A stretch of 64,000 nucleotides of DNA from a virus, in the IMG/VR virus record IMGVR_UViG_2795385552_000001; one strand, given 5' to 3'. The notes under the pieces were generated by a model. It searched no databases. It saw nothing but the letters and a program-made list of their open reading frames with translations, and was not told the DNA's origin. Position 1 is the stretch's first letter; each line of letters starts with the position of its first letter. Of the stretch, positions 57,667 through 62,510 are shown piece after piece. The position numbers were made by a program, and so were the translations under genes.

Positions 57667-57712
57667 ACGCCCCCAGTCGCATTCAGTTGCGACCGGGGGC
57701 GTCTTTTGTATT
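57667..57712. terminator. bidirectional rho-independent terminator between convergent operons
   Basis: acgcccccagtcgc-attcagtt-gcgaccgggggcgt flanked by T-rich runs on both strands. Confidence 0.6.
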
Positions 57713-57717
57713 TCCGC

Positions 57718-57921
57718 TCAATGATTGTCCGTCCAACCATCCTGCACGCCATCGACGTACGCGTGAGCCGCCTCGGTCCATCCGTCAGCGCGTCTCGGTC
57801 CGGGATCAGATGCCCAACGGACCGGCACGGAGACCACTTCGGGGAACTTGTCGCGGTGCGGCGCCAGCTTCACACCGACCTCGTAGCCCTCTTTGTAGGG
57901 CTCACTCTGCTTGTCAGTCAT
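57718..57921 (-). CDS. small hypothetical protein (67 aa), last gene of ARH operon
   Basis: ATG overlapping ARH stop (TGATG). Confidence 0.4.
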   Translation of the reverse strand: MTDKQSEPYKEGYEVGVKLAPHRDKFPEVVSVPVRWASDPGPRRADGWTEAAHAYVDGVQDGWTDNH

Positions 57922-58952
57922 CAGAACTCGTATCCTTCCGCTTCTGAAATCTCTTGCTGGTAGCGCGGTTCCAGCCTGTCGAACCATTCCGCAGGCCAGG
58001 GTTCCTCATGCATCGCACCGAGGATCGCCCCTGCAACCGCTGCGATCGAGTCGCTGTCACCACTGGTGACCGTCGCGCGACGAAGCGCCATGATCGGATC
58101 ATCGGGGAACAGGTCAACGCACAGGAGCGCGGTCGAAAGCGCGTGGTGTGCACGCCATCCCGCACCCGCCAGCTCGCACGGATCGAGATCCCATGGATCG
58201 CCACCGTTGTCATGAAGGTTAGACAGCGCAATGTCCGCGTCTATCAACGCATTTGCGACATTGAGCAGTCCTCGCGTCATGAACCTGCGCGTGCTGCCAT
58301 CGTTGAATGCCGGACCGTAGTAGTCGGCGTTCTCATCGATCCATTCGTCAACACCGCGCAAGAGAAGGCTATCCGCGTGCCGGATGGTGTCCAGTGTGAG
58401 GTTGAGCGCTGTAGTCACAGCATGACCACGCAAAGCACCGTGACGTATCAGAGCGGATGCGACCAACGAGGCAGCAGCCCCAGTAGGTGAACCATGCGTG
58501 GTGATCGCCTGCCACGTCGAAATGCCTTGCCAGCTCTTGAGATCGCTCGCGACGAACGCCGCTGGACTGACACGCATCACGGTTCCGCACCCGTCAGAGG
58601 TGGGAACCGCAGCGTCAAGCCAGTGTTCGCCACGCTTGATGGCGCTGATCGCGGCCATGCAGGTATTACCCGGCGCGCGGTTGTTGTCAGGGTCGTCGTA
58701 CCACTTGACCCATTCGGCGAGCACATCGTCACGAATCTCACCGTCAGGCTTGTTGCTCGCGTCGCGCAGACCCCGCGCGAGCGCGAGAGTCATCTGAGTG
58801 TCGTCACTGATGATCAGCTTCTCGGGCAGCTCGGGACCCATCGGCCCGTTCTCTGTGAGCTGCGCGTACGACTTGAATTCATTGCGGTAGCCCCACGCGT
58901 CGCCATAGGCGACACCGCGGAGCACGTTGGACCACGTTGTTGGCATTTTCAC
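57921..58952 (-). CDS. ADP-ribosylglycohydrolase (ARH/DraG family)
   Basis: GDAWGY, SDDTQMTLA, GNTCMAAIS, GGDSDSIAAVAGAILGA motifs typical of ARH fold Mg-binding residues. Confidence 0.8.
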   Translation of the reverse strand: MKMPTTWSNVLRGVAYGDAWGYRNEFKSYAQLTENGPMGPELPEKLIISDDTQMTLALARGLRDASNKPDGEIRDDVLAEWVKWYDDPDNNRAPGNTCMAAISAIKRGEHWLDAAVPTSDGCGTVMRVSPAAFVASDLKSWQGISTWQAITTHGSPTGAAASLVASALIRHGALRGHAVTTALNLTLDTIRHADSLLLRGVDEWIDENADYYGPAFNDGSTRRFMTRGLLNVANALIDADIALSNLHDNGGDPWDLDPCELAGAGWRAHHALSTALLCVDLFPDDPIMALRRATVTSGDSDSIAAVAGAILGAMHEEPWPAEWFDRLEPRYQQEISEAEGYEF

Positions 58953-59086
58953 ATCACGCTCGTCACGGGATATTCGCCAAGCAATTCTTGAGCCTGGGCA
59001 ATAGCGTCAACCGCAGTGTCTGCGTTGACCTCAATGGTTGACCAGACACGCGGTTCTGTCTTGAGTGTGACTTTCCAGTTGGTCAT
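58949..59086 (-). CDS. small hypothetical protein (45 aa), first gene of ARH operon
   Basis: stop overlaps ARH GTG start; GGAG-like RBS. Confidence 0.4.
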   Translation of the reverse strand: MTNWKVTLKTEPRVWSTIEVNADTAVDAIAQAQELLGEYPVTSVM

Positions 59087-59103
59087 CGCCCACTCCCTTC
59101 AAT

Positions 59104-59207
59104 TGGTAGATTCGTCTACCATTCTAAACTGTGATTGGTAGAGCTGTCTACCGGGATTGGTGATAGTCTGTCCCTCGTGTTTGGGCGTCATCGGTAGGTC
59201 GTACTAC
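59104..59207. promoter_or_regulatory. three palindromic operators GGTAGA-N4-TCTACC in divergent promoter region
   Basis: ggtagattcgtctacc (59104-59119), ggtagagctgtctacc (59136-59151), ggtaggtcgtactacc (59192-59207). Confidence 0.6.
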
Positions 59208-59250
59208 CGGCCGCGTCACTAGACTGAATGTGACGACTGGAGGACACTTA

Positions 59251-59628
59251 ATGACCATGGCAGCAGCACCAGCATCGACCAACGCGGCCGGGTGGCTGCG
59301 CGAAAACGGTTTCAAACTCTCTCGCGAGCACGCCGTACGGTTCGCGGACACCTTCAACGATCTGGTCGAACGGTATGCCGACCCCGCCGAGTATCCGATG
59401 CGTGACGCCGCGATGATGGCCGCTGCGCGGTATCTGGCCAACGAGCTGAGTGTTGAAGAGGCGGGCGTAGCCCTAGACAAGGCGCGTGCACGCACGGATG
59501 TGGCCATGGCCGTCGCGCGTATTGTGACGCTGCTGGCGTTGGAGGATGACAGCATCAGTGAGCATGGCGCACAGCGCGCTGCCCGAGTCGATCGCATGAC
59601 GGTTCGCCGCTGGCGAGGCAAGCGGTGA
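59251..59628 (+). CDS. putative HTH regulator (C-terminal HTH ...RVDRMTVRRWRGK); alternative start 59230
   Basis: GGAGG RBS 7 nt upstream of ATG 59251; C-terminal HTH-like segment. Confidence 0.45.
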   Translation: MTMAAAPASTNAAGWLRENGFKLSREHAVRFADTFNDLVERYADPAEYPMRDAAMMAAARYLANELSVEEAGVALDKARARTDVAMAVARIVTLLALEDDSISEHGAQRAARVDRMTVRRWRGKR

Positions 59629-61445: not shown

Positions 61446-61723
61446 TTGTTTCTCACTCTCATGTAAATGCACCTTTCGCGCCGTGCGAAAGAGGTTGTTG
61501 TTGTTGATGATTGGCGACACCCCGCCCGCCACCCGGTATAGAAAAACGGGCGGGGTGTCGTGTTGTTGGTGACGTGAGCCAGTCTTAGGGTTCGCGCCCA
61601 ATGGTCACTTAGCGCGCAAGCTCGCGTCCTTACCGTGATCGCGACCAACGAAATCACTTCTCAGACAAGCGAGACAGGACCAGGGGTCGCGAGGGTCGCT
61701 CCCGACCCCTGGTGATCTGCTGA
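61446..61723. promoter_or_regulatory. highly structured 278-bp leader between coiled-coil gene and AAA ATPase gene
   Basis: perfect 14-bp stem cgacaccccgcccg/cgggcggggtgtcg (61515-61560), 9-bp stem caggggtcg/cgacccctg (61681-61711), palindrome ctgactagttagtcag (61721-61736). Confidence 0.4.
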
Positions 61724-61888
61724 CTAGTTAGTCAGTAGATCTTCGCCTTGTTCGATTTGCGTCAGCTCCGCCTCCAGAGATTCCACCTCAGCTACGAGAG
61801 CACGAAGCTCACGTTTACGATTTGCAATCTTCTGGGTAACGACCCTGCGCCGTAGACGCAATGCTGCTAACGCCTCATCTCGGCTCAT
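61724..61888 (-). CDS. small coiled-coil protein (54 aa) upstream of AAA ATPase
   Basis: MSRDEALAALRLRRRVVTQKIANRKRELRALVAEVESLEAELTQIEQGEDLLTN; below ORF-track cutoff. Confidence 0.4.
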   Translation of the reverse strand: MSRDEALAALRLRRRVVTQKIANRKRELRALVAEVESLEAELTQIEQGEDLLTN

Positions 61889-61983
61889 CCCATCAGGCAG
61901 TCAAACCATGTTCACCTTCCTATTTCCGCTTGTCGTTGTTGTGATTGGCACCCTGCGGTGTCGGTGATCAGTGTAGCAGTAGT

Positions 61984-62092
61984 GGTAGACAAGTCTACCA
62001 ATGTGGACTCACTGAAATTGTTGTACAAGGCAACGCTACGTCAAACGCTGGACATAGACCTCGTGCAGTTTGGGTAGTAGAGTCATCTACCA
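61984..62092. promoter_or_regulatory. two further GGTAGA-N4-TCTACC-type operators in divergent promoter region
   Basis: ggtagacaagtctacc (61984-61999), agtagagtcatctacc (62077-62092). Confidence 0.55.
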
Positions 62093-62112
62093 ACAACCGA
62101 GGAGGTTCACCA

Positions 62113-62309
62113 TGTCAGAACAGGTCTTCGCCGCTACCGACGCGGACGGCGACACGCTGGACGTGCAACACTGGGCCAAGGCACAGAAGATGACCGTCAA
62201 GGTGCTGGACCGAGACGGCAATTTTCAGTCGGTCGAGCTGGATTACAGCGACGCTGCCGAGCTGGCGACAGCCATCACGGGCACGCTCGCGGAGGTGGCG
62301 GGGGCGTGA
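62113..62309 (+). CDS. small acidic hypothetical protein (65 aa)
   Basis: GAGGAGG RBS 7 nt upstream. Confidence 0.45.
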
Positions 62310-62491
62310 CCCTTCAGGGAACGGTTTGGATTCGAAAGTCGGACGGAGTTCAGTGTCGGGTGATCGGGGATGCCGAGAGCGCGTCGGGGCGTGGTAATCG
62401 CTCGATTCGGATGAAGAATCTCAAAACCGGTAGAGAGTTCTGGGCGACACCCGAAGGACTAGGAAGGAAGTACGCGAAACCTGTGGGATAG
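62306..62491 (+). CDS. small basic hypothetical protein (61 aa)
   Basis: ATGA-type coupling to upstream gene. Confidence 0.4.
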   Translation: MTLQGTVWIRKSDGVQCRVIGDAESASGRGNRSIRMKNLKTGREFWATPEGLGRKYAKPVG

Positions 62492-62510
62492 CAACAGATC
62501 TCAGTCTGGA

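Follow-up and report, generated by a model that had tools for sequence, protein, structure and literature searches.

Candidate operators of a helix-turn-helix protein in the accessory locus of a cluster MabR prophage of Mycobacterium abscessus and their relationship to the ESAS of Cluster K phages

Palindromic sites in the MabR accessory locus

The IMG/VR virus record IMGVR_UViG_2795385552_000001 (hereafter the window, that is, the whole stretch of 64,000 nucleotides that was analyzed) is 100% identical to the deposited prophage prophiFVLQ01-1 of Mycobacterium abscessus subsp. bolletii (BK061310.1; the coordinate in that record equals the window position + 222), one of the five described cluster MabR prophages (PMC9434293). 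The accessory locus of this prophage contains repeated copies of a palindrome, GGTAGA-N4-TCTACC, and encodes a small helix-turn-helix (HTH) protein, gp90, which we examine here as the candidate binder of the palindromes. The locus lies between the lysis cassette and attR, a position where lysogenically expressed accessory genes are typically found (PMC9434293). The preliminary description of this DNA, made from the sequence alone, reasonably placed the locus among such genes (PMC9434293, PMC8191103), and the gene layout that it gave is broadly right and matches the deposited BK061310.1 annotation. The MabR-specific genes, which encode a sliding clamp together with an ADP-ribosyl glycohydrolase, an HTH protein and an AAA-ATPase, have been described as "most likely expressed during lysogeny" (PMC9434293, PMC8191103). 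Neither of these two papers mentions a palindrome, operator or promoter at the MabR locus, and a literature search with the operator strings found no paper. The palindromic sites (putative operators) are as follows.

59105..59120, GGTAGATTCGTCTACC, exact; the equivalent place is conserved in all MabR genomes
59137..59152, GGTAGAGCTGTCTACC, exact; conserved in MabR genomes
59193..59208, GGTAGGTCGTACTACC, degenerate, 2 mismatches
59928..59943, GGTAGAACAGTCTACC, exact; abuts the gp91 ATG, with the same arrangement in FSAT01
61984..61999, GGTAGACAAGTCTACC, exact; in the divergent gp93/gp95 control region
62076..62091, AGTAGAGTCATCTACC, 1 mismatch, with an exact core GTAGA-N4-TCTAC; kept in all MabR genomes
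30827..30844, TGGTAGCGATGTCTACCA, seventh site, perfect TGGTAG-N6-CTACCA; inside gp56

With four exact matches to GGTAGA-N4-TCTACC in the window compared to none in 100 shuffles, the repeat is real; at up to 2 mismatches, there are seven matches against 0.9 expected. Six of the seven are in the locus (59105-62091), as first described, with four of the six original coordinate pairs off by one base; the seventh, 30828-30843 when scored by the same pattern (GGTAGCGATGTCTACC), lies in gp56 and shows that the motif is not, as had been thought, absent from the rest of the window. We define the operator core as GTAGA-N4-TCTAC and the full MabR form as T-GGTAG-N6-CTACC-A (TGGTAG-N6-CTACCA). The six locus copies precede five transcription units, namely gp89-ARH-gp87 (ARH, ADP-ribosylhydrolase), gp90, gp91, gp93, and gp95-gp96. 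No copy was found in front of the AAA ATPase gene, gp85 or the lipoprotein gene gp97, so that the presence of a palindrome in every promoter region holds for the five units and not for these three genes.

The sites are found at equivalent positions in all five MabR genomes and in IMG/VR relatives: three between the ARH and HTH operons, two in the gp93/gp95 gap, and, in the genomes that have gp91, one immediately adjacent to this gene. In FSQJ01, the most diverged MabR genome, homologues of gp93 and gp95 also flank the two sites of their control region (tblastn), and the sequence between these sites is heavily changed whereas the sites themselves are kept, including the counterpart of 61984-61999 despite its diverged flanks. 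Both sites show a symmetric change of the outer bases, from GGTAGA…TCTACC to AGTAGA…TCTACT. The degenerate site 59193-59208 is aligned in FSQJ01 with AGTAGACACGCCTACC, and the same TAGACT follows downstream.

Additional copies are scattered in these genomes. The seventh site is located 720 nt into gp56 (30109-33675), a minor-capsid/ADP-ribosyltransferase gene; it is conserved in McProf and perfect in FSQJ01, where it retains the G/C outer bases, the outer bases of the other operators being A/T. It may function as an internal site or be no more than a case of coding conservation: because the site is within coding sequence, its conservation may reflect the protein only. Among the relatives, there is one extra copy in an early intergenic gap of FSQJ01 and a tandem pair upstream of the McProf gene designated gp56 (34757-34979 of our locus L006). 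The McProf pair is canonical (GGTATACGTCTCTACC and GGTAGAGTGCTCTACC, 24 bp apart), and directly after its second site comes an in-frame ATG, located 14 codons before the GTG annotated as the start, so that McProf gp56 is probably a 60-residue protein made from a leaderless transcript. This gene is reported to be weakly expressed in lysogens (PMC8191103). We also considered McProf gp56 as a homologue of gp91 and rejected this possibility, given that the two have no similarity.

Overlap of the sites with predicted promoters

The leftward gp89-ARH operon has a predicted promoter that coincides with two of the sites.

59121..59150, minus strand, predicted gp89-ARH promoter; -35 TAGACA (59150-59145), 18-nt spacer, -10 TAGAAT (59126-59121)

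In a consensus scan, this promoter scored highest in the region as a sigma-70-type match, with 10 of 12 positions. Its -35 sits in the lower-strand half of the site 59137-59152, and the site 59105-59120 follows the -10 immediately and covers the position expected for the transcription start. Similarly, the site 61984-61999 is downstream of a leftward promoter predicted by the promoter scan (TTGACG, 62044-62039; AACAAT, 62022-62017).

At the three remaining locus sites, putative promoters were read by eye. The degenerate site 59193-59208 overlaps a putative -35 of the HTH gene (TAGGTC, 59195-59200), with a putative -10, TAGACT, at 59220-59225, 19 nt on, that is conserved in FSQJ01. On the lower strand, the site 59928-59943 provides a putative -10, TAGACT (59941-59936), with a putative -35, TTGATC (59965-59960), 18 nt upstream; this -10 is only 8 nt before the gp91 ATG and therefore implies a leaderless gp91 transcript. 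A second operator abuts an ATG also in the distant loci described below and, as mentioned above, at McProf gp56. Finally, the site 62076-62091 contains a putative -10, TAGAGT (62078-62083), of a rightward gp95-gp96 promoter with the -35 TAGACC at 62055-62060, a 17-nt spacer, and the gp95 ribosome-binding site following. Placement of operators on the -35, the -10 or the transcription start suggests repression when the regulator is present.

The same overlap could be read differently, with the palindromes being protein-free promoter or RNA elements, that is, bidirectional promoter cores or transcript hairpins. Indeed, the half-sites match -35 and -10 hexamers, and each palindrome could form a 5-6 bp hairpin. 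This explanation appears improbable, given that the right halves (TCTAC), which are unneeded for promoter function, are as conserved as the left halves in the information profile, and that the arms are conserved in sequence across genera, without compensatory changes, the central 4 bases varying freely. Furthermore, several sites are upstream of the predicted transcription start and hence untranscribed, Pope et al. found no RNA-pairing support for the related ESAS elements of Cluster K phages (PMC3203893), and the strict link between the motif and a single HTH family, to which we now turn, would be left unexplained.

Association of the gp90 family with the palindromes

The HTH gene of the locus lies downstream of three of the sites.

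59251..59628, plus strand, gp90; 125 amino acids, C-terminal helix-turn-helix (…GAQRAARVDRMTVRRWRGKR); proposed operator-binding autoregulated repressor

The gp90 protein matches PHROG 2311 (E 2e-20) and no Pfam, NCBIfam or PADLOC model. An AlphaFold model built from 55 sequences (pLDDT 93.7), which replaced an earlier one from 4 close sequences that was unreliable in the HTH, consists of a helical bundle, a long helix and two short C-terminal helices. In Foldseek searches with this model, the last ~35 residues superpose on the HTH domains of DNA-bound Sin resolvase, DeoR and LuxR-type proteins (helices 104-111 and 115-121, root-mean-square deviation 1.3-1.5 Å); no whole-fold relative was detected, and an HTH profile compared with the sequences of solved structures produced nothing significant. 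In alignments, gp90 shows the signature of its family, namely, three C-terminal HTH helices that close with D-R-[ML]-T-[VI]-R-x-[WY]-x-G-K. Only 66 representatives of this small family were found among 1.84 billion proteins; in tblastn searches, gp90 matched proteins of Pixie, Larva, Aminay and other Cluster K phages.

The association between this family and the motif was assessed in both directions. In the forward direction, a scan of one genome per species yielded no further MabR prophages and 13 distant gp90 homologues, from Mycobacterium, Mycolicibacterium, Rhodococcus, Nocardia, Amycolatopsis, Prauserella, Streptomyces, Microbacterium, Aeromicrobium and one metagenome-assembled genome. 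A tandem GTAGA-N4-TCTAC pair, mostly with both copies exact, is present upstream of 12 of the 13, in at least 8 actinobacterial genera; altogether, the 167 kb of the distant loci contain 21 exact copies, and shuffled sequences none. The pairs share one layout, with GTAGAC… as the first site and GTAGAGT… as the second, usually 23-24 bp start to start, so that TAGACa and TAGAGT are separated by 17 nt like a -35 and a -10; in many of the loci, an ATG follows directly after the second site. The second site thus bears TAGAGT, as 62076-62091 does in the window. The HTH gene is the sole gene shared by the distant loci, around which no conserved partner genes were found; it often comes second, preceded by a small gene that varies, and these leading genes are orphans with no family match. 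Viral contigs show the same association of the HTH with tandem sites.

In the reverse direction, 62 viral stretches were picked by the DNA pattern alone, and the HTH is encoded in 46 of them, in 40 of these 0-900 bp downstream of the sites in the correct orientation. Among the 16 misses, 11 are tandem-repeat artefacts and the rest are contig ends or additional sites of a phage that has its HTH in another stretch. Because the family is so small, this association cannot be due to chance.

Variation of the sites adds a further line of comparative evidence. Proteins with DRMT in the recognition helix accompany GTAG half-sites and those with DRLT or NRLT accompany GTTG half-sites, at an identical N6 spacing. 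A one-residue code for the outer base (Arg with G, Gln with A, hydrophobic with T) was considered and rejected, given that L016 and L049, which have Arg, and L019 with related loci, which have Gln, are flanked by T.

Under an alternative scenario, the palindromes are bound by some other protein, either a host regulator or one of the locus proteins gp93 and gp95, with gp90 being merely a neighbor. In its favor, conservation among the locus proteins is highest for gp93, and every MabR genome has gp95. Outside MabR, however, neither of these two accompanies the motif, and the HTH alone does; the hosts span many genera, so that a single host factor is unlikely; and the change of the half-site in Cluster K tracks the recognition helix of the HTH. 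We therefore regard another binder as very improbable. The comparative evidence is strong, and gp90 is the best candidate for the palindrome-binding protein, the HTH protein at 59251-59628 having been named already in the preliminary description; the two-way co-occurrence also supports the original notion of a small regulon governed by one symmetric, presumably dimeric, DNA-binding protein.

Relationship to the ESAS of Cluster K phages

The sequenced phages outside MabR that encode gp90 homologues are all of the Cluster K type, and the gene occupies the same slot there, following the lysis cassette. No GTAGA sites were found at these loci; their upstream regions contain two tandem palindromes, CTGTTG-N6-CAACAG, the first one with the -35 TTGAC and the second at the -10. 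With its flanks, the GTAGA motif reads CTGTAG-N6-CTACAG, so that the spacing is the same as in the Cluster K motif and one base differs per half-site. The K-like phage Aminay encodes a DRMT protein and has GTAG half-sites. A long-inverted-repeat finder applied upstream of the Cluster K HTH genes reported terminator hairpins only.

The Cluster K CTGTTG-N6-CAACAG elements are the published ESAS. These were proposed in 2011 as subcluster-specific sites of an unidentified DNA-binding protein (Pope et al., PMC3203893) and contain SigA-like promoters and inverted repeats (PMC11373665; PMC3203893). In the 2024 study of Adephagia, the identity of the ESAS regulator was considered unclear, other than that it is not the immunity repressor (PMC11373665), and in a 2025 survey of K4 phages, the role of ESAS was still called unverified; K4 phages mostly lack the association of ESAS with SAS, and some ESAS abut the start codon (PMC12699233). 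Our scan of Adephagia recovered all seven published ESAS positions (genes 36, 38, 39, 75, 76, 91 and 92) as tandem pairs, with 33 matches against 8.3 expected. Adephagia gp36 and ZoeJ gp36 are members of the gp90 family, and Pixie gp38 matches both at 45-47% identity. Beyond the published seven, Adephagia has a TGTTG-N6-type pair 42-65 bp upstream of gene 89 and another one inside or near gene 72 (29770-29808 and 22678-22714 of L126, about 56769 and 49677 in the record).

The window sites resemble ESAS in several respects: both are repeated several times per genome, in intergenic sequence ahead of gene starts; both are symmetric and enclose or overlap hexamers of the SigA-like -35 and -10 type; neither is present in the immunity repressor/cro region (for Adephagia, PMC11373665); one copy of each is directly upstream of a gp90-family gene (gene 36 of Adephagia and ZoeJ, 38 of Pixie, 37 of Larva); and some copies abut a start codon. 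The differences are that some window sites are single palindromes, that several serve divergent promoters, and that the cargo genes are not the same; in addition, ESAS are described in the literature as a pair of 17-bp inverted arms, not as two tandem palindromes, and the binding protein is left unnamed. No copy of the 13-bp SAS (GGGATAGGAGCCC) was found in the window at up to 2 mismatches, nor any Cluster K-type TGTTG-N6-CAACA at up to 1 mismatch, the MabR half-site being GGTAG. Because there is no SAS in the window, the window motif is a relative of ESAS rather than a strict member. As a class, then, the motif has a precedent, being the MabR counterpart of the Cluster K ESAS, and comparison of the sequences suggests that the gp90/gp36 regulator/site pair probably explains the latter.

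The immunity region

No copy of the palindrome, even at 1-2 mismatches, is present in the repressor/cro intergenic region of the window (2401-2689). This region has a repeated 13-mer of its own, GTC[A/G]CTAGTAGTT, at 2422 and 2605, which is a candidate operator of the immunity repressor; an inverted copy of the 13-mer was also noticed at 2641-2654, along with weaker copies at 2466 and 2480.

Dispersed repressor sites occur in mycobacteriophages. Among these are the stoperators of Cluster A phages, asymmetric 13-bp sequences distributed genome-wide, which the immunity repressor binds and whose orientation follows that of transcription. The palindromes could, accordingly, be extra operators of the immunity repressor gp3, in which case the locus would follow the lytic/lysogenic switch. 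The likeness to stoperators consists in the dispersal, outside the immunity region, of one short sequence that is (here by proposal) bound by a repressor; furthermore, the repeat of the immunity region contains TAGTAG, a faint resemblance to the palindrome, and dispersed repressor sites were considered for ESAS by Pope et al. (PMC3203893). However, unlike stoperators, the window sites are symmetric, few, located on promoters and unlinked to the immunity repressor, whose own control region carries the different 13-mer, on which ground this repressor was rejected as the palindrome binder. Across unrelated elements, the motif follows the gp90 family and not the immunity repressor, and the Adephagia authors came to the same conclusion for ESAS (PMC11373665). 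Control by gp3 thus seems extremely improbable.

A proposed repressor/operator cassette

We consider it likely that the palindromes are operators of gp90 and that the two belong to a portable regulator/operator/promoter cassette, present in many actinobacterial phages and separate from immunity. The half-sites would double as promoter hexamers, with TAGACa as the -35 and TAGAGT or TAGACT as the -10, and a bound gp90 dimer would exclude RNA polymerase by lying over the -35, the -10 or the transcription start. Under this model, gp90 would limit its own synthesis, being made in lysogens at a self-limited level, and would hold down four other units: gp89-ADP-ribosylhydrolase-gp87(-gp86), gp91, gp93, and gp95-gp96. 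The gp93 transcript possibly reads through a structured leader into the AAA ATPase gene. The ESAS of Cluster K would be a sister form of the cassette, with the gp90 homologue gp36 as the regulator. We infer physical binding, a dimeric state, repression rather than activation, and a signal that relieves it.

The available expression data appear to fit this model. In Adephagia lysogens, genes 36-38 are expressed and genes 75, 76 and 92 are not (PMC11373665), that is, the regulator operon would be on and several ESAS genes off. The reported weak expression of McProf gp56 in lysogens, together with its canonical pair of sites, fits as well.

Several observations weigh against the model or call for caution. 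One of the distant homologues, L014, has no motif. No single residue accounts for the change of the outer base (G in MabR, A in FSQJ01, T elsewhere), and the covariation between the helix and the half-sites comes from few independent lineages. Binding of gp90 to the palindromes is deduced by comparison, and its dimerization from the symmetry of the sites, the structure having been modeled as a monomer. Among the promoters, a single one passed the automated scan and the rest were read by eye. The ATPase gene lacks an operator, so that its membership in the regulon is uncertain. The half-sites of K1 ESAS are hybrid (TGTTG/TGTAT), and the discoverers described the layout of ESAS differently. In McProf lysogens, several unnamed right-arm genes are expressed, and the text on these RNA-seq data does not specify which right-arm genes are active (PMC8191103).

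In its general design, the proposed cassette has parallels in lambda-like Cro/CI, HigA and MqsA, small dimeric HTH repressors that bind tandem palindromes over their own -35 and -10 and exert negative autoregulation. Tandem operators over its own promoter are likewise proposed for gp90, but gp90 has no detectable sequence or whole-fold relationship to these repressors; in contrast to HigA and MqsA, no toxin partner was identified at the gp90 loci, and the MabR regulon spans several other promoters.

The analysis names a candidate protein family for ESAS binding along with an operator grammar, half-sites six bases apart, usually in a tandem pair with the -35 and -10, and extends the regulator/site pair well beyond Cluster K. 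If the model is correct, it would provide a compact orthogonal set of repressor, operator and promoter for mycobacterial and Streptomyces genetics, with the natural variants GTAG and GTTG, and would explain the immunity-independent control of gene blocks in TM4-, Adephagia- and ZoeJ-type phages, which are used in diagnostics and therapy. For prophages of clinical M. abscessus, the proposed regulon would show which accessory genes share one switch.

ADP-ribosyl hydrolase and transferase

The leftward operon behind the predicted gp89 promoter encodes an ADP-ribosyl hydrolase.

57921..58952, minus strand, gp88, ADP-ribosylglycohydrolase (Pfam PF03747, E 2e-50)
58949-59086, minus strand, gp89, operon partner of gp88
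57718-57921, minus strand, gp87, operon partner of gp88
57579-57740, minus strand, gp86, probable operon partner of gp88

The acidic ARH motifs of gp88, SDDT and GDSDS, are intact, and its closest solved relatives are the ADP-ribosyl-arginine hydrolases 6DRE, DraG and ARH1, the first of which is related to Tre1/Tri1. The scores of gp88 are below the curated cutoffs of the Tri1 and DraG families (47 and 43 bits vs 337 and 490; NCBIfam NF041672 names Tri1). A potential counterpart is encoded in the same genome: gp56 (30109-33675), which harbors the seventh site, is a virion minor-capsid fusion with a C-terminal ADPrib_exo_Tox domain and an R / STS / ExE triad. In 50,697 phage records, the hydrolase was found in 30 and the transferase in 71, with both in 13 (about four lineages), a co-occurrence in actinophages that is far above chance; Cluster A phages have the transferase without the hydrolase. 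Because the two co-occur in about four actinophage lineages, a self-directed, toxin/antidote-like pair of phage ADP-ribosyltransferase (ART) and ARH is plausible, and gp88 probably reverses the arginine ADP-ribosylation catalyzed by the phage's own virion-borne transferase, as judged from the sequences of the two proteins. The combination of an ARH-fold enzyme with an arginine-type (R-S-ExE) transferase in the same genome is shared with Tri1-type immunity, unlike which the genes here are about 24 kb apart, the transferase is fused to a virion protein, and the scores are far below the family cutoffs.

Combining these lines, we somewhat favor a broader proposition, namely, that the gp90/gp36 HTH family binds ESAS and forms a portable, immunity-independent repressor cassette in phages of Mycobacterium, Streptomyces, Nocardia, Rhodococcus and other Actinobacteria, which in MabR gates a hydrolase that neutralizes the phage's own injected arginine ADP-ribosyltransferase. 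The pairing of ART with ARH and the leader RNA described in the next section are further leads.

ATPase, small proteins, and a candidate leader RNA

The remaining features of the locus are as follows.

59739..59927, minus strand, gp91; 62 amino acids, with an 89% identical homologue in FSAT01-type genomes only
60024..61445, minus strand, gp92, classic-clade AAA+ ATPase; 473 amino acids (Pfam AAA, E 3e-14)
61446..61723, minus strand, leader/spacer RNA; 278 nt between gp93 and the ATPase gene, with two strong hairpins, a ~100-nt core and a CAA-repeat tract
61724..61888, minus strand, gp93, coiled-coil mini-protein; 54 amino acids, 85-96% identical in all MabR genomes
62112-62309, plus strand, gp95, small; conserved in all MabR genomes
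62306-62491, plus strand, gp96, small; in this genome only

The annotated start of gp92 is a TTG at 61601, which would yield a protein of 525 amino acids. The PHROG 10440 alignment begins at residue 10, the annotation of the FSQJ01 homologue has 476 amino acids, and, from these comparisons, the start is most likely the ATG at 61445; the structured spacer would therefore be non-coding. Full-length homologues of gp92 are encoded by Gordonia phages and by many phages of Gram-negative hosts, without the other genes of the locus. In Gordonia phage Fryberger, genes 50-48 (2275-4895 of L062) include a gp92 homologue with 53% identity in a block that is transcribed against the tail genes. This block is located between the tail assembly chaperone and tape measure genes, with neither gp93 nor the motif and with two partners that have no family match, and looks like a mobile insert.

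These distributions bear on the possibility that the locus is a new, lysogenically expressed anti-phage defense system organized by the palindromes, a scenario that could coexist with regulation by gp90. The position is typical for lysogenically expressed accessory genes (PMC9434293; PMC8191103), and the ATPase weakly matches the defense ATPases IetA/IteA and TRIP13. However, these PADLOC matches span ~55 residues at the Walker A motif and are far below the family level: of the ten locus proteins searched with PADLOC 2.0, nine had no match, no system was called, and the ATPase had only the partial IetA/TRIP13 matches. A known defense system was likewise rejected, PADLOC and NCBIfam having given nothing above the weak partial ATPase matches. 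The full-length ATPase homologues occur without the rest of the locus, the hydrolase co-occurs with a phage-borne transferase, suggestive of a self-directed role, and the cargo genes vary among the MabR genomes. Furthermore, operators on promoter cores imply repression when the regulator is made, and several motif-driven genes are silent in lysogens of the homologous Cluster K system (PMC11373665). A defense role is thus unlikely, the proposal of a new defense cassette in the preliminary description finds no support, and the cargo probably serves the phage.

The spacer between gp93 and the ATPase gene is more conserved than the flanking genes, and its predicted fold has a z-score of -5.3 relative to shuffles. 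The core recurs in 14 viral contigs outside MabR (L127-L140; also L064 2493-2620), always in the sense orientation and ~65 nt ahead of unrelated genes, which encode a membrane protein, 'MAISKAAL…' and 'MRNKIIT…'; compensatory changes are seen both in a long-range helix and in another helix that crosses it. No Rfam family matched the spacer, the region giving a single sub-threshold terminator-like match, and no tRNAs were detected in the region. The spacer is a candidate for a new cis-regulatory leader RNA of M. abscessus prophages.

Among the small proteins, gp91 has no family match. In other MabR genomes, gp93 is 61 amino acids long and starts 7 codons upstream, behind a good ribosome-binding site. 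In the window (61864-61909), codon 3 of this longer form is a TGA, as read from the alignment, and restart at an internal ATG would be required. In the prophiFSQJ01-1 record (63097-63710; 8512-9125 of L005), a plus-strand 'membrane protein' (gp96) is annotated over a minus-strand gp93 homologue with 89% identity, and a gp95 homologue (47%) overlaps the annotated gp97 (tblastn); the deposited FSQJ01 annotation is probably wrong in this region.

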